From Candidatus Hydrogenedentota bacterium (GTDB lineage: Bacteria > Hydrogenedentota > Hydrogenedentia > Hydrogenedentales > SLHB01), in NCBI GenBank assembly GCA_036769985.1, contig DAIPKA010000011.1:44818-108817 (forward strand): a stretch of DNA of 64,000 bases, written 5' to 3'. The notes beneath the pieces were generated by a model. It ran no database searches, had not been told where the DNA came from, and worked only from the letters and a program-made list of their open reading frames with translations. Position 1 is the stretch's first letter. Every line of letters starts with the position of its first letter. A program made the position numbers and the translations under genes. Shown piece after piece: positions 1 to 12,897 of the stretch.

Positions 1-557
1 GGCCGGTATCCTTTAAGCCGCATCGCCGTGCGCACCGTGCCGAACTCGTGGGCGGCCATCGGGATGAACCGGATGGCCGTGACGGCCATGAAGGCAAACG
101 AGAAGGGAAACCGCATAGCGAGGAGGCCGCGTAGGAAGCGATCGGGATCCGTGGTGAAGCAGATGGCATATCCGGTGAGCATGACCGCGGCCAGGCGCAA
201 CGATTGGATGAGGCCATAGCGCAGTCCTTCGCGATAGATATTGAGGCCGTCGCGGAACAGGCCGTTCGACGGCACGAGTTGGACCAGAACGGTTCGCGGG
301 TACTCGCTGTAGAAAAAGCCTTGGCTGAGGACGGTGCCCCAGATGAGTAGGCCGAGCGACGCCGCCGTCAAGCCGAGTTGCGCCCGCGTCGGCCACGCCA
401 ACGCAAAGATCGTCAAGCCCATCAGCGCGAGGATGGCGAGACACGGCGGACTGCCCGCCAGGACGACCTGGACCGATATGAAGAAGCCCAGGGCGAGCTT
501 GACGCGCACGTCGAGCCGCCCCAGCGGCGAGCGTCCAGGCTCAAACCAATCCGTCAC
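1..557 (-). CDS. ECF transporter transmembrane T component (EcfT/CbiQ family); 3' end truncated by window edge
   Basis: The reverse-complement translation from a GTG at 557..555 reads VTDWFEPGRSPLGRLDVRVKLALGFFISVQVV...LTGYAICFTTDPDRFLRGLLAMRFPFSFAFMAVTAIRFIPMAAHEFGTVRTAMRLKGY. It is a hydrophobic polytopic protein with a CbiQ/EcfT-like C-terminal region. Its GTG start overlaps the TGA stop of the upstream duplicated ABC ATPase (GTGA). It is not in the ORF track because there is no in-window ATG and the gene is truncated. Confidence 0.6.
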   Translation of the reverse strand, partial: MTDWFEPGRSPLGRLDVRVKLALGFFISVQVVLAGSPPCLAILALMGLTIFALAWPTRAQLGLTAASLGLLIWGTVLSQGFFYSEYPRTVLVQLVPSNGLFRDGLNIYREGLRYGLIQSLRLAAVMLTGYAICFTTDPDRFLRGLLAMRFPFSFAFMAVTAIRFIPMAAHEFGTVRTAMRLKGYR

Positions 558-2167
558 GCGAGCCATGCCATCAACTCCTCGATACCGAGCGTCTTCACGC
601 CCAACCTCCGCCCGTATTCTTGAAGCCGGGTGGGTCGAATGCGCGAACCGACAAGCTTGTCTTCATCCAGCAGTACCTGCCTCGGCGAACCATCGGCTGC
701 TACGCGTCCGTTGGCGAGCACGATCACGCGGTTGGCATGGCGCGCGGCCGTCTCGACATCGTGCGTGCAGAAGACCAGCAAGTCGACATCCTCGGCGAGC
801 CCGTCCATCATGCGCTCGATCTGGTCGCGATCCTGGCCCGTCGTCGGTTCGTCCAACAGCATGACGCGCGGCCGTATCGACAGCACGGACGCCACGGCCG
901 TCCGTAGCCGCTGGCCGCGCGATAGCGCAAACGGCGCGTCGCCCGCCAGATCGTCGAGGCCCATGCGCCTGATCGCCGCGTCCACTGTATCCTCGCGGTG
1001 GTGGCGGTCGATTCCCTTGTGTTTCGGCGCAAAGGCGACCTCGTCGCGCACGGTTTCCTGGAAGAGCATGAGATCCGGCTGCTGCAGCACGAGTCCGATC
1101 TCCGGCGTGGCATCGGCCCGCCATTGCACATGGCCGGCTACCGGCTTGAGCGCGCCGGCCAGCAGATGAAGCAGCGTCGATTTGCCGGAGCCGTTCGCGC
1201 CCATGAGCGCCACGCGCTCGCCCCAGCGAAGATCCATATCGAGCGGCGGGATTACCTCGGGCCCGCCTTTCGCGTACCGAAAGCGGAGTCCGTCGAGTCG
1301 CGCGAGTACCGGCGCCGCGTCGCCCGCTCGAGGTTCAGCCTCGGCCGGCCTCGAGCGAAGGTCGAGAACAGGCGCCTCGTCGGCGTGCAGAGGCCGCTCG
1401 CTACGCCCCAAGCGCGAGAACAACTCGGCCAACTGCGGGACGGCCAGTCCGAGGCGCTGGAGCGGCGTCAGATCGACGAACGCGTTCGATCGCACCTGAT
1501 CGCACACGATTCGGCCTTGATCCATCAACACGATGCGATCGGCCAAGGCGGCGACATCCTCGATTCGGTGCTCGACGACAACCACGGCGCGGTTGTGCTC
1601 GCGCCGCAGACGGGCGATCACGCCGAGGATCTCCTCCGCGCCTTCCGGGTCGAGTTGGCTGATCGGCTCATCGAGGAGCAACACCTCCGGTTCGAGGGCC
1701 AGGGCGCACGCGATGGCCAGCCGTTGCTTCTGGCCGCCGGACAGCGTAGCCGTTCGCGCGGAGGCGAGATGTGTCAGGCCGACGATGTCGAGCGCCTCGC
1801 GAATGCGCTCGATCATGGTTACGCGATCGACGGCCAGGTTCTCGAGTCCGAAAGCGACCTCGGACTCGACGGTAGCGGTGCAGAGCTGCGAGTCCGGATT
1901 CTGGAACACCGAGCCGACCACGCGGCAGAGATCGACGAGCGGCGTCGTACGCACATCGCGGCCACAGACCTCGACGCGTCCGAGGACGGTGGCTTCGCTC
2001 TCGTGAAATAGGATGCCGTTGAGGCAATTGAGCAGTGTCGATTTGCCGCAGCCGGTCGGCCCGGTGATCAACACCATCTCACCGGCGGCGACGGCGAGCG
2101 AGGCGTCCATAACGGTCGGCCGCTCGCGACCGGCATAGGTTACGGTGAGGTGGGCGGCACGGATCAT
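554..2167 (-). CDS. ECF transporter ATP-binding protein, duplicated (EcfA1-EcfA2 fusion, CbiO-like)
   Basis: Two complete ABC ATPase domains are present. Each has a Walker A (GPTGCGKST and GANGSGKST), an ABC signature (LSGGQKQR and LSRGQRLR) and a Walker B (LLLDEP and MLLDEP). The true start is MIRAAHLTV at 2167, which overlaps the stop of the upstream gene (ATGA). The longer ORF-track extension to 2953 lies in another gene. Confidence 0.85.
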   Translation of the reverse strand: MIRAAHLTVTYAGRERPTVMDASLAVAAGEMVLITGPTGCGKSTLLNCLNGILFHESEATVLGRVEVCGRDVRTTPLVDLCRVVGSVFQNPDSQLCTATVESEVAFGLENLAVDRVTMIERIREALDIVGLTHLASARTATLSGGQKQRLAIACALALEPEVLLLDEPISQLDPEGAEEILGVIARLRREHNRAVVVVEHRIEDVAALADRIVLMDQGRIVCDQVRSNAFVDLTPLQRLGLAVPQLAELFSRLGRSERPLHADEAPVLDLRSRPAEAEPRAGDAAPVLARLDGLRFRYAKGGPEVIPPLDMDLRWGERVALMGANGSGKSTLLHLLAGALKPVAGHVQWRADATPEIGLVLQQPDLMLFQETVRDEVAFAPKHKGIDRHHREDTVDAAIRRMGLDDLAGDAPFALSRGQRLRTAVASVLSIRPRVMLLDEPTTGQDRDQIERMMDGLAEDVDLLVFCTHDVETAARHANRVIVLANGRVAADGSPRQVLLDEDKLVGSRIRPTRLQEYGRRLGVKTLGIEELMAWLA

Positions 2168-4032
2168 GGCCTCACCCTCCGGAGTCCTTGGCCAAGACCG
2201 CGTCCGAGATACACACCGATGATCGTGTAAAGGAAACCGGTGACGACCACGTTCATCGCGATGTACCAGTCGGCGTAATACAGGCGATACAACACGGCGA
2301 ACAAGGCCAGGCTCGTGAAGGTTGAGGCGGCGTCGGCGAGGCCCAAGGCCAGCATCATCGGAGCCAACGCCGGCGTACGGCTTTGCTTCGAGAAACTCGT
2401 GACGCGGAAGAGGACGAGGAATACCTCGCGGAACGCGATGGCCGAGCCGACGAAGAGCAGATCGGTGAGGCCAAAGGCGCCGAAAAGGATGCCGCCCATC
2501 AGGTATGAGACGAGTCCGGCGATGGTCATCGCGCCGACGCGGGGCAGTTGATAGAGAATGGCGGTCACGAGGAGGTACGTCAACATCTCGGTGAGGAAGC
2601 CGCCCACAAGGCAGTTGAACGGCCCGAGAATGGCATAGAGCGCACTCGAGACCCATCCGCCGGCGAAGGTCAGACAGAACTGGAGCGAGCCGAGGAGCGA
2701 CAAGAGCACCAAGGCGCGAACGCCCATGCTTCGAATGAGCCGGCGGTAGAACACGAGGATGCCGCCCAGCCATACGAGCGTTACGGCGGCAACGAGAGCC
2801 ACCCAGAGCGAGAAGAACGGTTTCGCGCGGACAATGCCCAGCGGCTGTGTAAGGGCAGCCAACACGCGATCCGATCCGAGGGGAGTGATTGTGACGCGCC
2901 GCATGTACCGGCCCGCCGGTGCGCCCGGACTGACGTGGATCGGCAACACACACGGCGCGGTAGCACCGGGCGCGAGCTGGACAAACGCCATCGTCGTGTT
3001 CGTGCCGCTGCCCGATTGCCAGCTCGGCGCGTCGAAGAACGGCACGCGCTCGCCCGTCCGCGCATCCCCGATCTCGCTGAGTAACAGGAGGCTGATCGGC
3101 TGCTCCGTGCGATTGACGAGGTCAAGCGTCTGGAAAGTGAACGGCCGCGCCGGATCGAATCGCGGCGGGCGAACGCCAAGTTGCGTGGCCAGGCGATCCC
3201 AAAGGGCGTTTGGCATGACAATCTGGTTCGACGGCCGACCGGCCTCGGAATGGCCGGTGGCATCGGTCGGCATGCGCCACGCCGCCACCTCGACGGCCGC
3301 CGCATCCAGCGTCGGCGGCACGCAATGGACATCGAGGTCGACACGGCATTCCGCCACGTCCACCGCGACACGCCATGGGCCTTGCGGTAGCCGTTCACCG
3401 ACGCCAATCCGCGTGGTCAGCATTGCTTTGTCGAGTTCGAAGCTCAGCGTCTCCTTCTCGTCCTGCCACGCCGGCTCGATGTCGAGCGCATTCGCGTCAT
3501 TCCCGGCGGCAAATTCCGAGTGAACCGCCACCGGAATGGGGTCGTCGTCGTCGATGATCTTCTCGACCTCGAGCAGTACGTCTACGTGCTCACCCGGCGC
3601 GAGCGGCAGAGCCACACTATGCTGCTCCGAGGGCGGGAACGGCCGCGCCAGGAAGAACTCATGCGGCGGCTGACCGAGGGGCGCGTGCAGGCGTACCGCG
3701 ACGGCCGGCGGATTGGCCGGCCCGCGGACGCTCGTTCGCGCGTCGCCCGCGACCACCTCGTAGATCTCGCCCGGCGTCCACGAGAGCGGCACCTCGAGCG
3801 CGGTGCCGCCGTGCGTCTTCGCCCGAGCCACCACGTGGCCGCGCGCGTCCAGTACCTCGACCTCGGCCGCGCGGCCATCGTGTTCGACGCGGAGCAGGCC
3901 GGATTGCGTGAACGAGGCCGAGAGTCCAGGCGCCGACCCGCGCGACGACGGCCAGTACCGCAAGGCCAAGAAGGCGGCGAGGATCACGAGCATGCCGCCG
4001 GCGATGTAGACAAACCGATTCATAGGCGTCAT
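2164..4032 (-). CDS. large membrane protein: N-terminal signal anchor, ~370-aa extracytoplasmic domain, C-terminal ~230-aa polytopic domain (candidate ECF S-component-like module)
   Basis: The ORF is 622 aa. It has an N-terminal TM (FVYIAGGMLVILAAFLAL), a long soluble region, and then 5-6 hydrophobic helices at the C-terminus. It is sandwiched between the GT-C gene and EcfA1A2 with 4-bp overlaps (4029-4032 and 2164-2167). The S-component assignment is inferred from this position in an EcfA/EcfT operon and from the size of the polytopic domain. Confidence 0.5.
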   Translation of the reverse strand: MTPMNRFVYIAGGMLVILAAFLALRYWPSSRGSAPGLSASFTQSGLLRVEHDGRAAEVEVLDARGHVVARAKTHGGTALEVPLSWTPGEIYEVVAGDARTSVRGPANPPAVAVRLHAPLGQPPHEFFLARPFPPSEQHSVALPLAPGEHVDVLLEVEKIIDDDDPIPVAVHSEFAAGNDANALDIEPAWQDEKETLSFELDKAMLTTRIGVGERLPQGPWRVAVDVAECRVDLDVHCVPPTLDAAAVEVAAWRMPTDATGHSEAGRPSNQIVMPNALWDRLATQLGVRPPRFDPARPFTFQTLDLVNRTEQPISLLLLSEIGDARTGERVPFFDAPSWQSGSGTNTTMAFVQLAPGATAPCVLPIHVSPGAPAGRYMRRVTITPLGSDRVLAALTQPLGIVRAKPFFSLWVALVAAVTLVWLGGILVFYRRLIRSMGVRALVLLSLLGSLQFCLTFAGGWVSSALYAILGPFNCLVGGFLTEMLTYLLVTAILYQLPRVGAMTIAGLVSYLMGGILFGAFGLTDLLFVGSAIAFREVFLVLFRVTSFSKQSRTPALAPMMLALGLADAASTFTSLALFAVLYRLYYADWYIAMNVVVTGFLYTIIGVYLGRGLGQGLRRVRP

Positions 4033-6266
4033 TCTACGCGATCGGATGCCGGCGAGATCGCCTCGATGCGCCGCTGGATGTCGGCGGCCTTATCGAGATC
4101 GCCCTGGGCGGTGTAGACGTTGACGAGGTTGTTGAGGGCCAGGGCGAAACCGGGATTCAACGCCAGCGCCTTCTCATACTCGGCCGCGGCCTCGTCCAGC
4201 CGCCCTTGCCGCTCGAAAAGATAGCCGAGACCGTTGTGCGCCTCCGGCGAATCTGGAGCGAGCTCCAACGTCTTCCTATACAACGCCTCGGCCTCGTCCC
4301 ATCGCCCCTCGATCTCGTGCACGCGCGCCATGTTTCGCAAAGCGACGGCGTTCTCGGGCTCGCGGCGGGCCACCTCGCCGTACTGCTCGAGGGCCTCGGC
4401 ATACCGGCCTTCGCCCGCGAGCGTGTTGCCGAGATTCATACGCGTGATCGAGAGCCCAGGTTGCGCTTCCAGAGCCGCCTGATAGTGTTGGATAGCCTCG
4501 TTGGCCCGCCCGAGCCCGGCCAGCGCATAGCCAAGGTTGTTGTGGGCCACCGCGTCGTCCGGGGCAATCTCGAGGGCCTTTCTCAGATGCTCGATGCTCT
4601 CGTCGATCCGCCCGCGCTCGAGCAGGAGCCGGCCCAGATTCGCTTCGACCGGCGCCGATGGCGGGCCAGCGCGTTCGGCCTCTCCGTACGTGCGAATCGC
4701 CTCGTCCGGATCGCCGTGCGCCGTCCACGCCAAGGCCTGCCTGAGGTACCATGTTTGCCGCGACGGCTCGTAGCCGGTGGGATTCCAGTACGCCAGCCGA
4801 AGGGCGGCCAGCGCGAACAATCCCCACAGCGCGAAGCGCCGCCCGTCCCGAGCGGCGGCGAACCGGCCCAAACGCACGAGGCCATAGGCGCCGAACAGCA
4901 GCAGAAACGGAATGATCGGCACGCGGTAACGGCCCGCGATGAAGAATGGAATCACCGAGAGGAAATACGCCACGATAAAGAGCAGAATCGCCACGGACGT
5001 TTCGTAGGCCACCGCATCGGTTGCCGCCGCCGCTTTCTCGGCCCGCCGATCTCGAAGCCACAGCGCCAGGCCCAAGGCAAACAACGCCACCACGAATGGG
5101 AATCCCGGCAACAACTGCAAGACGCGCGAGAAACGCTTGTCGTAGGCCATCACCGTGTCGTTCGTGACCTCGCGCGGCCCCCAGAAGAGCAACGCCTTCT
5201 TGGCCGTCTTCTTCACGAACTCGGCGGGATGATGGGCCACGAAATCCAGGCCTTGTCGATAGAAGTACGCATTCGCTTCAGAGAACGTCATCCGCTCGCG
5301 GCCTAGTTTGTTGGCCAGTCCGCGCACGATGGCCGCATAGTCGAAGCAGCACCAGTTGTCGATGCCGACGAGATCCTTGAGCTCGGGTATGCGCGGCTCG
5401 ACGCACGAGGCCTCGGCATTGTTGCCCACGTAGAAGTTCAGGCCGCCGTACGAGGATACGAAGACGAAATCGCGCGCCACGGCGAAGTTGCGCACGGCCC
5501 CCGGCGTCAGTACCGCCACCACGCCGATGGTCACGGCCACGGCACTGCGCCACCACCGCCGCCCCTCGCCGTGGCGATGGGCCACCCAGGCCATCCAAGC
5601 GACGAGCACCGGCGCATAGAGAAGGCCGTTCGGCCGGAATAGGCCGAAGAGCCCGAGCAGGAGTCCGACTGCGAGCGCCCGCCATACGCCACGGCCCGCC
5701 GCCCACCAGCGCACCGCCAGCGCCAGCGCCAGCAAAAGGAAGACGACGACGGCCGGATACGTCAGCAGCCCCTCGAAATAGATGAACGCCCAATAGGACA
5801 TCATCAAGGCCGCCGCCACAAGTCCCACCGTGCCGCCGAAAAGCGCCCGGCCTAGGAGGAAGATCAGCACGCCACTGCCGAGTCCAAGGGCCGTCTGCAC
5901 GAGACGCGGCGACCAATCGTTGACGCCGAACACCGAATAGACAGCGGCGAGAAACCACGGATAGCCCGGCGGCCGCCCGTGGGGCGTCGTGCGGATCTCC
6001 GGATCATTGACATCCGGCGGCAGCGTCCAGTCGCCCGTCACCAGGCCGCGCGCCCAATAATCGTTGTACTGCGGATCGTACAGCGGATGCGAGAACGTGG
6101 GTTCGCGGGCGATCTCGGCGAGGTACAGGGCGCGCAGACACAGCCCTGCCACCAGGATGATCACCAAGATCAGCCATGGACGGAGTCCACGCCTTGCCAC
6201 ACGGACGGTTTCCTGGGGCTTCTCGCTGTTGGTATCAACCACGCTACGCGCTCTTCGGTGGGCCAC
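4029..6266 (-). CDS. PMT/ArnT-like GT-C membrane glycosyltransferase (PMT_2 family) with C-terminal TPR repeats (TMTC-like architecture)
   Basis: The ORF is 745 aa. The N-terminal ~480 aa carry many TM helices and aromatic-rich loops typical of PMT_2/ArnT GT-C enzymes. The C-terminal ~260 aa are classic TPR repeats (AxxNLGxxLxxxGRxxEAIxxYxxAL, repeated at least six times). Confidence 0.75.
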   Translation of the reverse strand: MAHRRARSVVDTNSEKPQETVRVARRGLRPWLILVIILVAGLCLRALYLAEIAREPTFSHPLYDPQYNDYWARGLVTGDWTLPPDVNDPEIRTTPHGRPPGYPWFLAAVYSVFGVNDWSPRLVQTALGLGSGVLIFLLGRALFGGTVGLVAAALMMSYWAFIYFEGLLTYPAVVVFLLLALALAVRWWAAGRGVWRALAVGLLLGLFGLFRPNGLLYAPVLVAWMAWVAHRHGEGRRWWRSAVAVTIGVVAVLTPGAVRNFAVARDFVFVSSYGGLNFYVGNNAEASCVEPRIPELKDLVGIDNWCCFDYAAIVRGLANKLGRERMTFSEANAYFYRQGLDFVAHHPAEFVKKTAKKALLFWGPREVTNDTVMAYDKRFSRVLQLLPGFPFVVALFALGLALWLRDRRAEKAAAATDAVAYETSVAILLFIVAYFLSVIPFFIAGRYRVPIIPFLLLFGAYGLVRLGRFAAARDGRRFALWGLFALAALRLAYWNPTGYEPSRQTWYLRQALAWTAHGDPDEAIRTYGEAERAGPPSAPVEANLGRLLLERGRIDESIEHLRKALEIAPDDAVAHNNLGYALAGLGRANEAIQHYQAALEAQPGLSITRMNLGNTLAGEGRYAEALEQYGEVARREPENAVALRNMARVHEIEGRWDEAEALYRKTLELAPDSPEAHNGLGYLFERQGRLDEAAAEYEKALALNPGFALALNNLVNVYTAQGDLDKAADIQRRIEAISPASDRVE

Positions 6267-6455
6267 ACTCGCCGCTCGCTATCCTGCCGACAGGCCTAGG
6301 TCCTTTGCAAACACCTGCGTTCCGGGCGATGGGGCTTCCCTTACGCGGCGTCTGGTCTGCTATACTCGGCGCAGAGGCCGCGGGCGCGCTTCAGGCGCGG
6401 AGAGCCCGAGGCCCGCTGTGTTCGAGTGTTCCGAGGGAAGGTGTAACCAACCGGC

Positions 6456-7580
6456 ATGGACGAGTCTTCGGCGCCCAAGGATAGGCCCACGGTTTCGCTC
6501 ATCGTACCTACGTACCATGAGGCCGAGAACCTGCCTGAGCTTATCGAGCGGATCGAGGGCGTGCGCGATGCGAACGGCCTCGATATCGAAGTCCTCATCA
6601 TGGACGACAACAGTCGGGACGGCACCGAGGAGGCCGTAGCCAAGCTCGCCCGGCCATGGGCGCGCGTCGTCACGCGCACGGAGAATCGCGGCCTGAGCGC
6701 GGCGGTCGTCGACGGATTCCGCCTGGCCAAGAACGACGTCCTGATCGTCATGGACGCCGACCTCAGCCATCCCCCCGAGAAGATTCCGGAAATGCTCGAT
6801 GCCTTGGCGCAGGGCCACGATTTCGTCCTCGGCTCGCGCTACACGGCCGGCGGCTCGACGGATGAGGGCTGGGGCCTGTTCCGAGCCATTAACAGTCGGA
6901 TCGCCACGCTCCTCGCGCGGCCGTTTACCTCCGTCAAGGATCCGATGAGCGGTTTCTTCGCCTTCCAGCGCTCAAGTCTCGAGACCGCCGCGCCGCTGAA
7001 TCCCATCGGCTATAAGATCGGTCTCGAGATCCTCGTGAAATGCAATTGCCGCAACGCCTGCGAGGTGCCGATCCACTTCAGCAAGCGCCGCCACGGCAAG
7101 AGCAAGCTTTCGTTGCAAGAGCAACTGCGCTACCTGCAACATCTCCGGCGGCTGGCCGTGTTCAAGTACGGCAATTGGGCGCATTTCGTCCAGTTCGCCG
7201 CCGTCGGCTTCTCGGGCACCATCGTCAACCTGGCCGTGCTGACAATCCTCCTCTGGATCGGTGTGCCCATCGAGGTGGCGGTTGCACTCGCGATTTTCAT
7301 CTCGATGCTCTCGAACTTCGGCCTGAACCGGCGTATCACCTTCTCGTACGCGCGCGGCGGCTCGTTTTGGCTTCAGCTCGTCGGGTTCCTCGGCGCGAGT
7401 TCCATCGGCGCAGTCGTGAATTACGCGACCGTCATGGCCGTGCTGCGCGCGTGGCCGGCGCTCGAGCGGATTCCGCAGATCGCCTCGATGGTAGGCATCC
7501 TCGCCGGCCTCCTCTTCAACTACTTCGCGAGCCGCTACTTCGTCTTCGTGAAGCCCCACCGAGATCGCGGCCCAAAATAG
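6456..7580 (+). CDS. DPM1/Ppm1-like GT2 polyprenol-phosphate sugar synthase fused to C-terminal GtrA-like membrane domain
   Basis: GT2 motifs are present: SLIVPTYHEAENL, IMDDNSRDG and VMDADLSHPP (a DPM1-type DAD..SH motif). The C-terminal ~120 aa form four TM helices resembling a GtrA domain (FVQFAAVGFSGTIVNLAVL..). Confidence 0.8.
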   Translation: MDESSAPKDRPTVSLIVPTYHEAENLPELIERIEGVRDANGLDIEVLIMDDNSRDGTEEAVAKLARPWARVVTRTENRGLSAAVVDGFRLAKNDVLIVMDADLSHPPEKIPEMLDALAQGHDFVLGSRYTAGGSTDEGWGLFRAINSRIATLLARPFTSVKDPMSGFFAFQRSSLETAAPLNPIGYKIGLEILVKCNCRNACEVPIHFSKRRHGKSKLSLQEQLRYLQHLRRLAVFKYGNWAHFVQFAAVGFSGTIVNLAVLTILLWIGVPIEVAVALAIFISMLSNFGLNRRITFSYARGGSFWLQLVGFLGASSIGAVVNYATVMAVLRAWPALERIPQIASMVGILAGLLFNYFASRYFVFVKPHRDRGPK

Positions 7581-7623: not shown

Positions 7624-7720
7624 AAATGGGGACAGTAACCCTTTATTTCGTCGTTACTTGTCGTCGAGTTGGAGTGGCTGCGGAATGCGGTGATGGAATA
7701 AAGGGTTACTGTCCCTATTT
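7624..7720. repeat. AT-rich inverted repeat (23-bp arms, 1 mismatch, ~50-nt loop) between convergent genes; candidate bidirectional terminator hairpin
   Basis: The left arm is aaatGgggacagtaaccctttatt (7624-7647) and the right arm is aataaagggttactgtcccTattt (7697-7720). The segment is flanked by tandem ttaaatgg repeats at 7599-7628. The whole 7581-7735 region is far more AT-rich than the flanking genes. Confidence 0.6.
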
Positions 7721-9200
7721 AACGCCTATTTAGCGTTTGGAGGTACTCGGCCACATAGTCGGCCACGATGGATGCCTTGAGGTCGATGCCGGCGTTCTTC
7801 ATGTGGCACACGTCGCCGAAGTATTTCCCCCCGCCCTGGATGTTCTCGGCAACGGGAATGTATCCGAAGTCGTTGCGCTTGCAGCAGTCGACCAGGAGCC
7901 GGTTGTAGAGTCGGATCGCGCGGCAGTATGTGGCGAAACTGACGTAGCGGCCGCCCCATTCGAGGTCGTTGTAGAAGTCGTAGTAGGCGCGTTCGTTGCT
8001 CGAAAGATGCTCGATATCCGGATGGGCGAAACTGCAAAACGCCATATCGACACCGCGCTCGGCGGCGTAATCGTGCATAAACTTGAGATTGGCGAAGGTG
8101 ACGGCGTCGAGATCGCGCATCATGCGCGCCTCGTCAGGCAAGAGCCACCGGTTCAGGTAGAAGTTGAGGAACCGTGATTGGCGCACGACGCGTTGCCACA
8201 GGCGCGCATCCGCCACCCATCGAGGGAAATGGTAGTGGCAAATATCGTTGACGGCGTTGTAGTAGACGATCAGATCCGGCTCGAGCGCCAGGTAGTCCGG
8301 TAGCCGCATCTTCTCTTTGAGTGTGTTGACGCCCGTTAGGCCGCAGTTGATGACATCAATGGACGGAGCATCGAAGCGCTGCTTGAGCTTCCGCTCGAGC
8401 AAGTTCGGATAGGTGACGGCGTTGGCATCCCCTTCTTCGGTGGTCGATCCGCCGATGCAGACGATTCGGAACACGCCCTCCGGCTTCGGTAGCACCACGT
8501 CGTCGTCGCGGAACCCGACGTTGTTCGTGTGGAACTCCTGATCCTCGCGGTAGGCGTGTTTCTTGTAGATGAAGAAGGGCTTCTCCCACATGGGATGGCC
8601 CGGATCGGCGGTATCGGCATGTTCGAGAAACGCGGCCGCCGCCTCGCCCTCGCGGCCTTCGCCGGCCAAGGGATACACGAACAGCTTGGTAATGATGCGG
8701 GTGCCTTGGCCGGCCGGTACGTCGAGCAAGGCCGACTCGCCCTTCGCCAGCGCGTCGCGTAGGACGTGAGCCACGGCGTCGCCATACACGGCCAAGAGCG
8801 AACCGGCGTCGGCGGCCTCCTCTCGCAACGAGTAGAACTGCACGGCTTCGCCGCGAGCGTCGAAGACGAGGATATCCTGGAGGTACATCTCGGCGAAGGT
8901 GGCCCGATCATCCTCGGAAAGCCGGGCGAAAAACGCGGCGCGCCGGCCAGCCTCATCGAGGGGCGTCCAGGTGGCAAGCTGCGGCCCGGCGGCTGGGGCC
9001 GTGGCGAGGTAGTCCTCGCGGAACTCGGCGTTGCTACCGTCCGGCCAAGGCACCGTGCCGTCTCGCGCGAGGACATAGGGATTCCGGCGCTCGATGTTTC
9101 GCCACTTGACGGCGAAGAACACCTCGAGCGCGCCGATGGTAGCCGCGATCCAAAAGAGGGCGACGGCCAAGAGAAAAGCGGTCCGAGCCAGCTTCCTCAT
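7719..9200 (-). CDS. membrane-anchored SGNH/GDSL-family hydrolase (esterase/acylhydrolase), paralog 1
   Basis: There is an N-terminal TM (AFLLAVALFWIAATIGAL). SGNH blocks are present: I VCIGGSTTEEG, II INCGLTG, III YNAVND, V DVCHMKNAG (DxxH). Its start overlaps the stop of the upstream paralog (9197-9200). Confidence 0.7.
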   Translation of the reverse strand: MRKLARTAFLLAVALFWIAATIGALEVFFAVKWRNIERRNPYVLARDGTVPWPDGSNAEFREDYLATAPAAGPQLATWTPLDEAGRRAAFFARLSEDDRATFAEMYLQDILVFDARGEAVQFYSLREEAADAGSLLAVYGDAVAHVLRDALAKGESALLDVPAGQGTRIITKLFVYPLAGEGREGEAAAAFLEHADTADPGHPMWEKPFFIYKKHAYREDQEFHTNNVGFRDDDVVLPKPEGVFRIVCIGGSTTEEGDANAVTYPNLLERKLKQRFDAPSIDVINCGLTGVNTLKEKMRLPDYLALEPDLIVYYNAVNDICHYHFPRWVADARLWQRVVRQSRFLNFYLNRWLLPDEARMMRDLDAVTFANLKFMHDYAAERGVDMAFCSFAHPDIEHLSSNERAYYDFYNDLEWGGRYVSFATYCRAIRLYNRLLVDCCKRNDFGYIPVAENIQGGGKYFGDVCHMKNAGIDLKASIVADYVAEYLQTLNRR

Positions 9201-10702
9201 TCGGTCGCCTCCGTCGTGCGCGGCGTCGCGCCGATCCTATCAGCCACGATATCTCGGATGGACTCGAACACGATCTCCGCCTTCCGCTCGATGCCGGCGT
9301 TGGTCATGTGACAGATATCGTCGAAACACTCCGATCCTCCACTTAACCGCTCGGCCACCGGGGCGTAGACGGCCCCGACCTCATCGCAAAGTTTCTTGAT
9401 TTCGCGATTGAGTTGATCGAGCGCGCGGCGATATGTCGCAAAGGTAACATACCGGCCGCCCCAATCGCGCATAAACGTGTACTCGAAGTAGTCTCGTTCG
9501 GCGCGCGACAGGCCGGTCTTGGCGGGGACCGCGAAACTGCACAGGACCATTCCGACGCCGGACTGCTGTGCCGCGTTCGCGATCGCGGCCATATGCGCCA
9601 ACGTTGTAGTCTTCGTCAAGCGCGTCACATCCTCGAGGGGCACCAACCACGCGTTGAGGTAGTCGTTCAGCGCCGCCGACCGCCGCACCAGTCGACGCAA
9701 AGGCGTAGCTTCATTCAGGTACACCGGGAACACGCCATGACAGAGATCGTTGACGGCATTGTAGGCCACGAGCAGGTCGGGGTCGAGCGCCAGGAAATCC
9801 GGCAATCGCAACCACTCCTTGAAGACGCTCATACCGGCGATTCCACAGTTGATCACCTCAATGGATTCCGTCTCAAAGGACTCGCGGAGTCTGCGCTCGA
9901 GGAGATTCGGATAGGTGTCCGCGTGCGTGGGGCCTTCTTCGGTTGTCGAGCCACCGATACAGACCACGCGGAACACCCCGGGAGGTTTGGGCAGCACGAC
10001 ATCGTCATCGCGGAATCCCACGTTATTCGTCCAGAAGTCCTTGCCTTCTCGGCTCACGCACGGTTTGTACACGAAGAAGGGCGCTTCCCACACCAAACGC
10101 TCCGACGTCGTGGCACCGGGGCCGGCCGGCTCTGCCACCAACACGGCCGCCGTCTCGCCATCGTGGAGCGGGTAAATTAGGACGGAATCGGCCTCGCCGC
10201 CCACGGATTGCGCATCGCGGGCGAGGATCTCGGGCCGGCCGCTTTCGATGGCCTGAGCCAAGTTTCGCCGGACAATGATGTCCGTGTAGGCACCCACGAT
10301 CTCCTTGAGTTCTGCCGGCGCATCGGTGCTCCACCCCCGGGCATACACGGAACGCAGGTTCGCCGACGCATCGGCAACGACGACGCGAACGCCGTACGAA
10401 TCCGCGAACATGCGTCGTTCAAGATCGGTGAGCCCTTCGAAGACGCTGAGCCGGCGCGATTGCACGGTCAACCGGTCCGCGAAGGCCGGCGGTGTGGGCA
10501 AGGCGTCCCGGGGTGGCGGGGATCCTTCGATATCCTCGCCCGAGGTCCACATCACGGCGTCGCCACGTTCGAGCACCAGGGGATTCGAGCGCTGTATGGC
10601 ATGCCATCGGAACGCGTGATAGCACTCCAGTCCGAGGAAGAGGATCAGCGTCCACAGGAGGGCCAACGACAAGACAAACGCTATACGGGCCGCCCTTCTC
10701 AT
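9197..10702 (-). CDS. membrane-anchored SGNH/GDSL-family hydrolase, paralog 2 (tandem duplicate of 7719-9200)
   Basis: The protein from MRRAARIAFVLSLALLWTLILFL onward aligns with paralog 1 along its length. Shared motifs are FFVYKP, TNNVGFRDDDVVLPKP, VVCIGGSTTEEG, VINCGIAG, YNAVNDLCH and DICHMTNAG. The ATG at 10702 overlaps the TGA of the upstream GT-C gene. The ORF-track start at 11047 lies inside that GT-C gene. Confidence 0.7.
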   Translation of the reverse strand: MRRAARIAFVLSLALLWTLILFLGLECYHAFRWHAIQRSNPLVLERGDAVMWTSGEDIEGSPPPRDALPTPPAFADRLTVQSRRLSVFEGLTDLERRMFADSYGVRVVVADASANLRSVYARGWSTDAPAELKEIVGAYTDIIVRRNLAQAIESGRPEILARDAQSVGGEADSVLIYPLHDGETAAVLVAEPAGPGATTSERLVWEAPFFVYKPCVSREGKDFWTNNVGFRDDDVVLPKPPGVFRVVCIGGSTTEEGPTHADTYPNLLERRLRESFETESIEVINCGIAGMSVFKEWLRLPDFLALDPDLLVAYNAVNDLCHGVFPVYLNEATPLRRLVRRSAALNDYLNAWLVPLEDVTRLTKTTTLAHMAAIANAAQQSGVGMVLCSFAVPAKTGLSRAERDYFEYTFMRDWGGRYVTFATYRRALDQLNREIKKLCDEVGAVYAPVAERLSGGSECFDDICHMTNAGIERKAEIVFESIRDIVADRIGATPRTTEATE

Positions 10703-12897
10703 CGCTTTCCTGAAGAGGCGGTCTCTTTGCGCGCCAGGGCTTCCTGAAGCCCCTCCTGGCCACGAATGTCGCCGGGATCCCACTCGATGGCCTTGCGGAA
10801 GTGCTCGATCGCCGTGTCGAACTCGCCTTTCTCCATGTAGGCCACTCCCAGGCACGTGTGAGACCATGCGTTGCCGGGGATTTCGACAAGCGATTGCTCG
10901 AGGAAGGGAATGGCCTCGTCGTACCGGCCGCGATCGGTGAGTAGCATGGCGAGGTTCACGAGCGACCAGGGATAGTCGTGGGGATCCAGGGCGACGGCCT
11001 TCTCGAAGGCAGGCAACGCGGCCTCGTCGTTGTGCATCTCGCGCCACGACATGCCAATGTACGAATATGCCCTCGAGTACTCGGGATCGATATCGAGCGC
11101 CCGTTCACACGCCGCGATGGCATCCTCGAAACGCTGCCAACGCCAGAAGGCCAGCGCCAGTTCACAGAATTCCCAGGGGCCATTCTCGGCTAAGTCGCCC
11201 GGCTTGGCCAGTACGATTCCATCGGGGTCGCGCATCACTTCGTAGACCAGCACGTGCTGGATTCCGCCGAACTCGCGGAACTGGAAGGTCATGGCTCGGT
11301 CACGAAGGGCCTGTTCAAACGAACGGTTCGGTCCGGCCTCGAAGTATTCGGTACGGATGATGGCCCAGGCCGTGCAGGGGCCTCCCTCCTCGGATGTCGA
11401 CGGCTTGTTAAGACCCACGTAGAAGGCACACTGGTCCGCGAGGACGTCAAACGACGTCGCGTAACCGATGACGTTCGGCGCGGGCCCCATGTTGAAGGTG
11501 AAGATGCGCTTGCAGAGCTCGTCGTGCACGAGGAGCAAGTCGTCGGGCCTGGCCTCCGCTCTGATGAACGCCGCCGCGGACTTCCAATCCGTGTGCTGGG
11601 GCCCGTCGAATACGAGCATCTGTTGGTAACCGTAGACCGCGGCCAAGACAGCCACGGCGACGACCTTGAAGGGCCGGCCGGGGATCCGCATAACCCCGGC
11701 AGCGAGAAGCAGGTACAGCGCCAGCGAACACTGGAGCGTGTAGCGCGGCATGACGCATGGGCGCCACACGCGCGACACCCCGTAGAGGATCACGGGCGGC
11801 ACCACCCACCAGAGCACCAGGAAGAACGTCCACGGCCATCGGCCATCGGGACGCTGGCCCTCGCGCTTGCGCAACGCGTCTCGAATGCTCACCAAACAGA
11901 GACCCAGCGCGGCGACGGCGAATCCAAGGGCGATCCATTTCCCGATCAGTTTGCGACCGGCTACCATGGCCGCGGCGCGCTCCGGCGGAAAGACGCGCTC
12001 CCAGGCCTGCGGCGTTGCCTGGAGCTGGTAGGTAAGGCCGACGCAATCATCCGCGACAACGTCCGCGATGAACTCGGTAGGCGTGGGGAGCCGCATCCAT
12101 GACTCGGTAGATTCGACGGACCAGAAGCGTATCGTGGCCACGTAGACGAGCGTGGGGATCATGATGACCGTGAGCAGGCCAATCCAGGCAACCAGTCTTC
12201 GGAAATCGCGAGGTCGGAACAGGAGGAAGAACAGCCCCTCCACGAACGGCACGAACAGGGCGAAGGGATGCGTCCAGAAGAGGGACAAACTGGCCAGGCC
12301 GTGAAGCGCCCACCACCGCTTCGTTCCGCCCTCGACGAGCCGAATAAAGGTGTACATCGACAGTGCCGAGCACAGTGTCATTAGCCCGTACATTCGGATT
12401 TCGGCGGCGAAATGGGCGTGAATGGGCGACGCAGCCACAAGAAACGCTGCGATGAGTCCGGCGTGGACGCCATACAGGTATCGGCCGGTAACGTAGACCA
12501 CCGGGACAAGGCACAGGCCGATGAGGATGGAGAGCATGCGCAGTCCCGTGGTGGATGGATCGACGTGCTCGTGCCACACGTACTCGAGAACGTAGTAGAG
12601 CGGCATGGTCGCGGGATCCATGCTCCGATTCTGTTTGAGGAAGCCGAGCAAGGAGGGCGCGGTCTCGCGACGGACGGTCTGGTTCCATAGGTCGTAGTGC
12701 GGGGATTCCTTCCAGGTTTGGGGCGGATCGAGGTGAATCATACTGCTGAACTCGTCCCACCACACCGACTCGTCCGCGATTCCGTGAACCCTGACGACCA
12801 GTCCAAGCAGAAGAATGAGGCCCAACGCGACGCGGACAATCCAGACGCGTCGTGGCGATGGCGATTTCGTCGGTGCGCTGTCCGTGGGTTCCGACAC
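10699..12897 (-). CDS. PMT/ArnT-like GT-C membrane glycosyltransferase with C-terminal TPR repeats (TMTC-like), paralog 2
   Basis: The N-terminal domain is polytopic with a VWWDEFSS loop, and the C-terminal repeats are TPR (AxxAIxxFxKAIExDP etc.). The longest ORF reaches 13065, but its first ~55 codons have AT-rich third positions atypical for this genome. A GTG at 12897 preceded by GGAGG with a 5-nt spacer is the more likely start. Confidence 0.7.
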   Translation of the reverse strand: MSEPTDSAPTKSPSPRRVWIVRVALGLILLLGLVVRVHGIADESVWWDEFSSMIHLDPPQTWKESPHYDLWNQTVRRETAPSLLGFLKQNRSMDPATMPLYYVLEYVWHEHVDPSTTGLRMLSILIGLCLVPVVYVTGRYLYGVHAGLIAAFLVAASPIHAHFAAEIRMYGLMTLCSALSMYTFIRLVEGGTKRWWALHGLASLSLFWTHPFALFVPFVEGLFFLLFRPRDFRRLVAWIGLLTVIMIPTLVYVATIRFWSVESTESWMRLPTPTEFIADVVADDCVGLTYQLQATPQAWERVFPPERAAAMVAGRKLIGKWIALGFAVAALGLCLVSIRDALRKREGQRPDGRWPWTFFLVLWWVVPPVILYGVSRVWRPCVMPRYTLQCSLALYLLLAAGVMRIPGRPFKVVAVAVLAAVYGYQQMLVFDGPQHTDWKSAAAFIRAEARPDDLLLVHDELCKRIFTFNMGPAPNVIGYATSFDVLADQCAFYVGLNKPSTSEEGGPCTAWAIIRTEYFEAGPNRSFEQALRDRAMTFQFREFGGIQHVLVYEVMRDPDGIVLAKPGDLAENGPWEFCELALAFWRWQRFEDAIAACERALDIDPEYSRAYSYIGMSWREMHNDEAALPAFEKAVALDPHDYPWSLVNLAMLLTDRGRYDEAIPFLEQSLVEIPGNAWSHTCLGVAYMEKGEFDTAIEHFRKAIEWDPGDIRGQEGLQEALARKETASSGKR

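Follow-up and report, generated by a model that had tools for sequence, protein, structure and literature searches.

The window analysed here is a stretch of 64,000 nucleotides from a Candidatus Hydrogenedentota bacterium (GenBank assembly GCA_036769985.1, contig DAIPKA010000011.1). Its positions 1-6266 hold four consecutive open reading frames (ORFs) on the minus strand, encoding a GT-C glycosyltransferase, a membrane protein of 619-622 amino acids (aa) that we call S*, a fused EcfA-EcfA' ATPase (EcfAA') and a truncated EcfT. The conserved unit is S*-EcfAA'-EcfT together with a secreted beta-propeller protein. The GT-C is a neighbour of this energy-coupling factor (ECF) cassette and not a conserved part of it, and the contact between them is specific to this lineage. 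The cassette belongs to a known kind of transporter, of which it is a variant so far left unannotated, and its S* family is new. It is most likely an ECF-type importer of the B12 regulon, with a corrinoid as the most likely substrate and cobalt as a less likely one. We favour, with some reservation, a reading in which two unrelated modules abut in the window, namely an autonomous ECF-type corrinoid importer cassette and a glycosylation set that works with lipid-linked sugars.

In the first-pass annotation of this DNA, the ECF module was thought to be hard-wired to the GT-C in a glycosylation pathway, and conservation of the four-gene arrangement was set beforehand as the test. A scan of GTDB with one genome per species revealed S* homologues in 301 species genomes. 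Eighty loci were fetched, and neighbourhood counts were taken over 89 loci with S*, which span more than 10 phyla. Public contig L083 contains the window; the first 600 nt tested were an exact match and the GT-C product is identical. Neighbours were tested by single-sequence phmmer, by a profile hidden Markov model (HMM) built from 60 GT-C homologues, by Pfam searches on the immediate upstream genes and by public gene tables. Among the 89 loci, a GT-C upstream of S*, and a GT2-GtrA gene, were found only in L083 and L084, the window's own contigs. By none of these tests was a GT-C detected upstream of S* in the other 87 loci. Single-sequence phmmer is insensitive, since it misses even the second GT-C paralogue of the window. 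Therefore, the search was repeated with the profile HMM and with Pfam on the immediate upstream genes, although divergent GT-Cs farther off could still escape detection. The profile HMM added a single match, a gene that lies downstream of the beta-propeller at a distance of 63 nt in a metagenome-assembled genome (MAG) of Poribacteria (L059:12609-14291; PMT_2 22.9 bits, below the cut-off). This adjacency is probably due to chance.

The closest relatives of both partners gave the same picture. The cassettes of the closest S* homologues (P0002-P0005 with 56-57% identity, P0010 with 51%) each begin after their own intergenic region of 143-413 bp, and the genes flanking them are unrelated, most of them pointing away. 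ECF genes are missing from all three of the closest GT-C orthologues (64-65% identity); downstream of them lie a GDSL-family protein, a chloride channel and, in the third case, no called gene in the remaining ~480 bp of the locus. Two of the three keep GT2-GtrA and GDSL neighbours. The arrangement is thus not conserved, and the proposed hard-wiring of the ECF module to the GT-C was not upheld. A 4-bp overlap here represents tight packing and not functional coupling, and the test of neighbourhood conservation overturned what had first been read from it. In this lineage the ECF cassette and the GT-C are probably co-transcribed, yet would not form a functional unit. Most likely, the cassette in the window is transcribed from the promoter region of the GT-C (6267-6455) or from an unrecognised internal promoter.

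S* was not matched by any family in Pfam or NCBIfam at E<=0.01. Twenty aligned sequences of the S* domain gave no relevant Pfam match even at E<=10, and a profile of S* compared with PDB sequences returned nothing at E<=10. Likewise, no sequence-profile match was obtained to known S-component families (YkoE, CbiM, BioY, RibU, ThiT, FolT, CbrT, BtuM and others). All homologues are unnamed or labelled 'hypothetical' and, save for three fragments, have a length of 570-670 aa. A profile search of 1.84 billion representatives resulted in 416 S* clusters at 50% identity, nearly all of them consisting of proteins of 540-700 aa that carry the S-domain C-terminally. The S* family is new at the sequence level and covered by no described family. 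The nearest relative of S* in GTDB comes from a Hydrogenedentota MAG, and the MAGs with S* loci are labelled Hydrogenedentota, Planctomycetota, Fibrobacterota, Lentisphaeria/Verrucomicrobiota, Myxococcota, Desulfobacterota, Nitrospirae, Deferribacteres, Firmicutes, Actinomycetes, Poribacteria and others.

An AlphaFold2 model of S* was built from 51 aligned homologues of full length (mean predicted local distance difference test score 89). The model has an N-terminal transmembrane (TM) helix at residues 4-26, beta strands between residues 38 and 401 and a helical membrane domain from 405 to 620. The ectodomain of ~375 aa is predicted to be all-beta and made of several Ig-like domains. In the model, the C-terminal domain has one extra linker TM helix and a genuine S-component fold of six helices, and its best structural match is YkoE and not CbiM. 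Structure prediction thus bore out the earlier description of S* as a membrane protein with a large exo-domain and an S-component-like C-terminal domain. The most conserved motif of the family, LGPFNCLVGG, lies in the C-terminal membrane domain. Judged by position, it would sit at the extracytoplasmic start of S-helix 2, past a loop by which other S-components close their binding site. A positive loop (YRRLIRSMGVR) precedes the first S-helix and the C-terminus is basic. This charge pattern argues that both ends of the S-domain are cytoplasmic, like those of other S-components, and that the ~375-aa domain would therefore lie outside the cell.

The EcfA-EcfA-EcfT module named in the first-pass annotation proved to be real in the family scans (Table 1). 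EcfAA' has two ABC_tran domains and both nucleotide-binding domains are intact. The first half carries GPTGCGKST, LSGGQ and LLLDEP, and the second half GANGSGKST, LSRGQ and MLLDEP, as Walker A, signature and Walker B motifs, respectively. The 185-aa fragment of EcfT in the window belongs to the CbiQ family, and the full 291-aa EcfT on L083 is likewise annotated CbiQ. We take AIRFIP...AMRLKGY in EcfT to be two coupling-helix motifs of the Ala-Arg-Gly type. The cassette has the features of the ECF family, namely a T component of the CbiQ family, two EcfA-type ATPase domains and the predicted six-helix S-component fold. The closest known layout is that of YkoEDC, a group I ECF transporter with fused EcfA-EcfA' (YkoE, PDB 5EDL). 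The order S, fused AA' and T is the same, and the EcfAA' and EcfT signatures are common to both. In contrast to YkoE, S* shows no sequence similarity to YkoE itself or to any Pfam S-component family, and it adds an N-terminal anchor, the ectodomain, an extra TM helix and a dedicated secreted beta-propeller. Moreover, S* cassettes of other loci stand behind B12 riboswitches and not in a thiamine-related context.

Among the 89 loci, EcfAA' follows S* directly in 42, with EcfT usually next. The most faithful partner of S* is the beta-propeller, which adjoins the cassette on the same strand in 71 loci, including nearly every Poribacteria locus. These propeller proteins carry signal peptides, in several cases with a lipobox; compared with the PDB, the partner profile matched generic WD40 and PQQ-type propellers only. 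Further partners are CobN (11 loci), ChlID (11), a TonB receptor (10) and CbiZ (6). The comparative evidence for a role of the cassette in B12 physiology is strong. Cobalamin riboswitches (Rfam RF00174) gave 14 matches with 76-129 bits in 12 loci (L016, L006, L043, L041, L031, L053, L022, L055, L024, L073, L080 and L042), where they lie on the S* strand and head S* operons. In L031, a second riboswitch downstream of the cassette heads CobN. In L006, from a Sandaracinaceae MAG, two riboswitches (6456-6644 on the minus and 6741-6970 on the plus strand) stand back to back in one intergenic region and point in opposite directions. A B12-box motif was found upstream of S* in 45 of the 89 loci, using a regular expression with upstream GGGAA and CCCGC elements; Rfam bore out each of the seven predictions checked with it.

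The genes for CobN, ChlD and ChlI flank S*-EcfAA'-EcfT in MAGs of Fibrobacter, Myxococcota, Desulfobulbaceae, Nitrospirae, Deferribacteres, Firmicutes and Actinomycetes, and the CobN copies of L012 and L016 exceed the TIGR02257 cobaltochelatase equivalog cut-off. CbiZ, the adenosylcobinamide amidohydrolase of corrinoid salvage, was detected with 187-206 bits in the operons of L008, L012, L016 and L045. TonB-dependent receptors open the operon in 10 loci, and for the full-length receptor of L008 BtuB was the best-scoring family (TonB-B12), below the cut-off. The receptor is followed by a lipoprotein (p379/p423), which is homologous to p432, encoded at the head of the Poribacteria operon (hhalign probability 97%, E 9e-11). 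This third extracytoplasmic component, X (L022:7772-9052, L041:6782-7921, L012:1912-3183), is common to Poribacteria and Myxococcota/proteobacterial MAGs. The profile of X matches the BtuG structures 3DSM, 8BAI, 8BAZ and 8PUJ at E ~6e-8, and we regard this likeness as a lead, not as proof. The Poribacteria-labelled loci have a conserved string of riboswitch, X, S* and propeller. No EcfA or EcfT adjoins S* in these loci, where at most two weak same-strand ABC-ATPase matches were seen kilobases off. S* of Poribacteria may act by itself, like BtuM, or rely on a module from another part of the genome.

For the copy in the window, the link to B12 would be one of descent. No Rfam family was detected anywhere in the window, which also contains no B12-box, and a TonB receptor, BtuG-like lipoprotein or CbiZ was not found on its contig L083. 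Since such neighbours are lacking there, the connection rests on full-length orthology, with 41-47% identity, to the riboswitch-linked S* proteins of L006, L012 and L016.

The operon make-up of riboswitch, outer-membrane receptor, surface or periplasmic binder, ATP-driven inner-membrane transporter, CbiZ and CobN/chelatase corresponds to that of documented loci for the uptake and salvage of corrinoids, and this led us to the corrinoid-importer model. Operon-2 of Dehalobacter restrictus consists of a riboswitch, a BtuFCD-like transporter, two CbiZ genes, CobN and Mg-chelatase subunits, and is induced 346-fold by corrinoid starvation (PMC4285132). In Bacteroides, the seven-bladed propeller lipoprotein BtuG is encoded beside BtuB and binds B12 with femtomolar affinity (PMC6143338). 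Riboswitch, BtuB-like receptor, propeller lipoprotein, CbiZ and CobN/Mg-chelatase, as known from operon-2 and from BtuB-BtuG-BtuFCD loci (PMC6143338, PMC10404256), all recur in S* operons. In place of BtuFCD, however, S*-EcfAA'-EcfT stands at the inner-membrane step, and the window's own copy has none of these neighbours. While BtuG is reported as restricted to Bacteroidetes, the BtuG-like S* loci belong to Myxococcota, Desulfobacterota, Poribacteria and others. An ECF fold can handle tetrapyrroles, since ECF-CbrT and BtuM for B12 and Lha for heme exist. A link to B12 uptake, putative for S*, is common to S*, ECF-CbrT and BtuM (PMC5997447, PMC6072759), and BtuM works without an ECF module, like the S* loci of Poribacteria, in which none is adjacent. 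In contrast to S*, CbrT and BtuM are bare six-helix proteins of ~20 kDa, and they have no sequence relationship to it.

Fold, gene associations and riboswitches were obtained by computation; substrate, hand-over and direction of transport are what we infer. In the proposed mechanism, Module A (window 1-4032 and beyond) would be a group-I-style ECF cassette of S*, fused EcfA-EcfA', EcfT and the secreted beta-propeller. On the periplasmic side, the propeller and the S* ectodomain would bind a corrinoid, either a cobamide or cobinamide, and hand it on to the S-component pocket. ATP hydrolysis by EcfAA', transmitted via EcfT, would then drive import, and the cobalamin riboswitch would repress the cassette in many phyla. 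In Module B (4029-7580 onwards), GT2-GtrA would make and flip a polyprenyl-P-sugar, which the periplasm-facing GT-C/TPR (tetratricopeptide repeat) enzyme would use. Module A would in this lineage have lost its own upstream intergenic region and landed directly behind the GT-C.

Several observations weigh against this interpretation. Ligand-binding residues could not be assigned in S*. Import of cobalt would agree just as well with the bona fide cobaltochelatase encoded in these operons, and the match of lipoprotein X to BtuG is no better than that to the generic YVTN propeller 1L0Q. No riboswitch, chelatase, CbiZ or TonB receptor was seen near the cassette in the window or in its closest S* relatives (Hydrogenedentota- and Planctomycetota-labelled MAGs). 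For S-components a toppling movement is proposed (PMC10368641), and a tethered ectodomain may be hard to square with it. Finally, the GT-C is tightly packed against the cassette with no terminator detected, so that co-expression is likely and a functional link specific to this lineage is conceivable, and the GT-C-like gene of L059 also stands next to a cassette.

The strongest competitor is import of cobalt or another metal ion for CobN/ChlID, in the way of CbiMNQO, with ectodomain and propeller serving for periplasmic metal capture. B12 riboswitches also control known cobalt transporters, and some Nik systems have extra periplasmic components. ECF architecture and a CbiQ-family T component are common to the cassette and CbiMNQO/NikMNQO, whose known members are associated with the B12 regulon. 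In the S* operons, CobN above its equivalog cut-off and ChlD/ChlI directly flank S*-EcfAA'-EcfT, and the riboswitch-headed operon-1 of D. restrictus has ECF-type CbiMNQ genes (PMC4285132). In contrast, a corrinoid is suggested by the presence in these operons of CbiZ, a BtuB-like receptor and a lipoprotein like BtuG, and two large extracytoplasmic protein components are unusual for the capture of an ion. Pfam searches gave no CbiM or CbiN sequence signature, YkoE and not CbiM tops the structural matches, and a conserved His cluster was not seen in the S* membrane domain. Furthermore, the ectodomain is fused and not separate. On this balance we consider metal import unlikely, though it deserves to be taken seriously.

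The corrinoid-importer reading bears on a recognised gap. Only around half of the bacteria auxotrophic for B12 have a predicted BtuCDF, and most of the transporters that carry B12 across the inner membrane await identification (PMC6072759). The S* cassette is a testable candidate for one such missing transporter, being unannotated, present in at least 301 species-level genomes of many phyla and set in a B12-linked context. The fusion of an ectodomain to S* and the dedicated periplasmic binders are unusual for ECF systems and bear on how S-components move in the membrane. A wider proposal is that S* represents an unrecognised, phylum-spanning and riboswitch-controlled class of tetrapyrrole (corrinoid) importers with a tethered ectodomain, one or two secreted propeller binders (one of them BtuG-like) and, in Poribacteria, no adjacent ECF genes; here we stop just short of leaning towards it. 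If true, this class would stand between ECF transporters and ABC importers that depend on binding proteins, as a hybrid of the two. It would then close some of the gap in inner-membrane B12 transporters and challenge the free-toppling model. A literature search for ECF transporters with an ectodomain or beta-propeller partner, or for B12 transporters of Poribacteria, returned nothing relevant, an absence that is not proof.

We also analysed the second module. The GT-C combines PMT_2 with a dense array of TPR families. A search with it gave 394 relatives, of which the named ones are mostly labelled Hydrogenedentes/Hydrogenedentota. Taken with the nearest GTDB relative of S*, these labels speak for an organism that is probably not a planctomycete. 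The best NCBIfam likenesses of the divergently encoded GT2-GtrA, all below cut-off, were to ArnC, AglJ, PgfS and PpgS-type enzymes, and GT2-GtrA is likely the donor-supplying partner of the GT-C. As in GtrA/GtrB/GT-C systems (ArnC/ArnT, GtrABX, PpgS-type), a PMT_2 GT-C, here with TPRs, adjoins a GT2-GtrA fusion. By gene content, a GT2 domain, a GtrA-like domain and a GT-C are encoded together, which is the feature set of a three-component lipid-linked glycosylation system. The pairing of GT-C and GT2-GtrA recurs at the orthologous loci L085 and L091. The window has a second PMT_2/TPR GT-C paralogue (10699-12825, minus strand), followed by two GDSL/SGNH-hydrolase genes (9197-10666 and 7719-9200), and a GT-C/GDSL pairing is also present beside the GT-C orthologues in L085 and L091. 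The second paralogue with its GDSL/SGNH genes places the GT-C, together with GT2-GtrA, in a paralogous envelope-glycosylation neighbourhood. This suggests a recurrent GT-C and SGNH envelope-modification module in these genomes, which are probably Hydrogenedentota.

Could the ECF module still be part of the glycosylation pathway? According to the earlier idea, it would supply energy for the lipid-linked donor or flip it, or else bring in a cofactor or sugar that the GT-C needs. A 4-nt overlap or 5-nt gap after the GT-C with no terminator, the identical arrangement in two contigs from different samples (L083 and L084) and the single further GT-C-like gene in L059 are in line with this. However, no other S* locus has this arrangement, nor do the GT-C orthologues that are closest, and a donor synthase with a GtrA-type domain already adjoins the GT-C. 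Moreover, PMT_2/TPR genes are so numerous (two in the window, apart from the many relatives) that chance adjacency is expected in one or two of ~85 loci. We know of no ECF transporter that flips lipids, and consider this role very improbable.

By analogy to the eukaryotic enzymes TMTC and TMEM260, the TPR-bearing GT-C might instead O-glycosylate the beta-sandwich ectodomain of S*, or the beta-propeller, as its client in this lineage. The domains modified by TMTC and TMEM260 (cadherin EC and IPT) are Ig-like beta-sandwiches, and the neighbouring S* is predicted to have several Ig-like domains. DUF1736 (PF08409) is part of the TMTC family definition and was absent among the Pfam matches listed for the GT-C and among the precomputed ones of the identical protein P0054. 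With PMT_2 and TPRs and no PF08409, the GT-C is TMTC-like in architecture only. TMTC1-4 are reported to contribute to cadherin O-mannosylation, and TMEM260 to glycosylate a domain common to cMET, RON and plexin receptors. GT-C plus TPR architecture is common to the window's enzyme and the TMTC O-mannosyltransferases (PMC7801869); in contrast to these, the GT-C of the window is bacterial and belongs to a highly paralogous family whose usual partners are GDSL/SGNH genes. Conservation of the adjacency was not seen, and no sequence mark of glycosylation sites backs what is pure analogy prompted by adjacency. We give such a client relationship very little credence.

That S* and the beta-propeller form a B12-regulated sensor or receptor, or that the Poribacteria type has another role without an ECF module, is hardly likely, because the Poribacteria-labelled loci without EcfA/EcfT beside S* fit this but solitary S-components such as BtuM can transport (PMC6072759), and S* is followed by EcfAA'T in most other sampled loci, with a 4-nt overlap in the five closest.

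Finally, the gene boundaries were inspected. The four minus-strand ORFs were found where the first-pass annotation had placed them, and Pfam/NCBIfam scans of the window translations reproduced all of its domain calls. It had also described a 4-bp overlap at every junction. The sequences read directly were ...GTAGAATGACG (ATGA) for GT-C/S*, ...GCCATGATCC (ATGA) for S*/EcfAA' and ...CGCGTGACGG (GTGA) for EcfAA'/EcfT. Of these, only the S*/EcfAA' ATGA is unambiguous, and it was found again in all five closest homologous loci; the other two overlaps hinge on the choice of start codon. S* may start with the ATG at 4032 (622 aa) or with that of Met4 at 4023 (619 aa). The Met4 start aligns with the starts of the homologues and is the call on one public contig copy, and it leaves a 5-nt gap after the GT-C and no overlap. 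EcfT may start with GTG at 557 or with the in-frame ATG at 566, the public call (291 aa), which results in a 13-nt overlap. The public gene call of the GT-C begins at 6242 (737 aa). Whichever starts are chosen, the packing leaves no space for a promoter or terminator. A scan for consensus promoters and terminators gave nothing above chance, including at the GT-C 3' end; the scan is silent for or against an internal promoter of the cassette.

Table 1. Features at the start of the window, with positions in window coordinates.
Feature	Position	Strand	Evidence and remarks
EcfT (T component), N-terminal 185-188 of 291 residues	1..566	-	CbiQ 61.5 bits (cut-off 25), TIGR02454; remainder past window start
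Fused EcfA-EcfA' ATPase, 537 aa	554..2167	-	two ABC_tran domains; TIGR04520 380.3 bits (cut-off 315), TIGR04521 370 bits (cut-off 330)
S* C-terminal membrane domain, residues 405-622: linker TM helix and predicted six-helix S-component fold	2164..2820	-	
S* putative extracytoplasmic all-beta ectodomain, residues ~27-404, several Ig-like beta-sandwiches predicted	2821..3954	-	
S* N-terminal membrane anchor, residues 4-26, and alternative starts	3955..4032	-	hydropathy, model helix 4-26, two public gene calls (622 and 619 aa)
GT-C with PMT_2 membrane domain (~4767-6266) and C-terminal TPR array (~4032-4766)	4029..6266	-	PMT_2 48.2 bits (cut-off 26.1), TPR families
Divergent intergenic region between GT-C and GT2-GtrA; sole non-coding stretch upstream of the four-gene string	6267..6455	.	
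GT2 fused to GtrA-type membrane domain (polyprenyl-phosphate-sugar synthase type)	6456..7580	+	Glycos_transf_2 118 bits, GtrA_DPMS_TM 75.8 bits

The cassette runs past the window edge. On L083, the complete EcfT (L083:15677-16552) is followed on the same strand by the gene of a 478-aa beta-propeller (L083:16641-18077), a 91-aa ORF and then a convergent ZnuABC-type operon. The 91-aa ORF gave a weak match of the CXXC type (DnaJ_CXXCXGXG). The beta-propeller proteins of distant loci (L017:7444-9129, L047:7599-9344, L031:7477-9234) show, over their N-terminal ~100 residues, a weak likeness to the first of the beta-sandwiches in the S* ectodomain (E 1e-5 to 1e-3 in a blastp search of small size), and the two may represent a shared docking domain. 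On a Poribacteria chromosome, an IS605 OrfB/TnpB-type gene (L022:11409-12572) lies between S* and the beta-propeller, which are adjacent elsewhere, for example in L023.

Some further genes were seen near the cassette in other loci. In the Desulfobulbaceae MAG of L031, a 752-aa fusion of a NifH-like and a nitrogenase-component-1-like protein (L031:12048-14306) is encoded between EcfT and the second riboswitch with CobN; we take it to be reminiscent of tetrapyrrole reductases of the CfbCD/BchLNB type. A radical-SAM/SPASM protein gene (L012:15888-16883) stands between the beta-propeller and the second CobN in a 12-gene operon of Polyangia. Two close relatives that lack a riboswitch have URO-D-family genes near the cassette (L082:1794-2915 and L087:5062-6228). 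This family includes uroporphyrinogen decarboxylase and corrinoid methyltransferases, and the genes are a weak hint at a tetrapyrrole context. In flanking DNA unrelated to the cassette, a group I intron (65 bits; L053:762-994, minus strand) and a T-box leader (98.7 bits; L082:19111-19379, minus strand) were detected.

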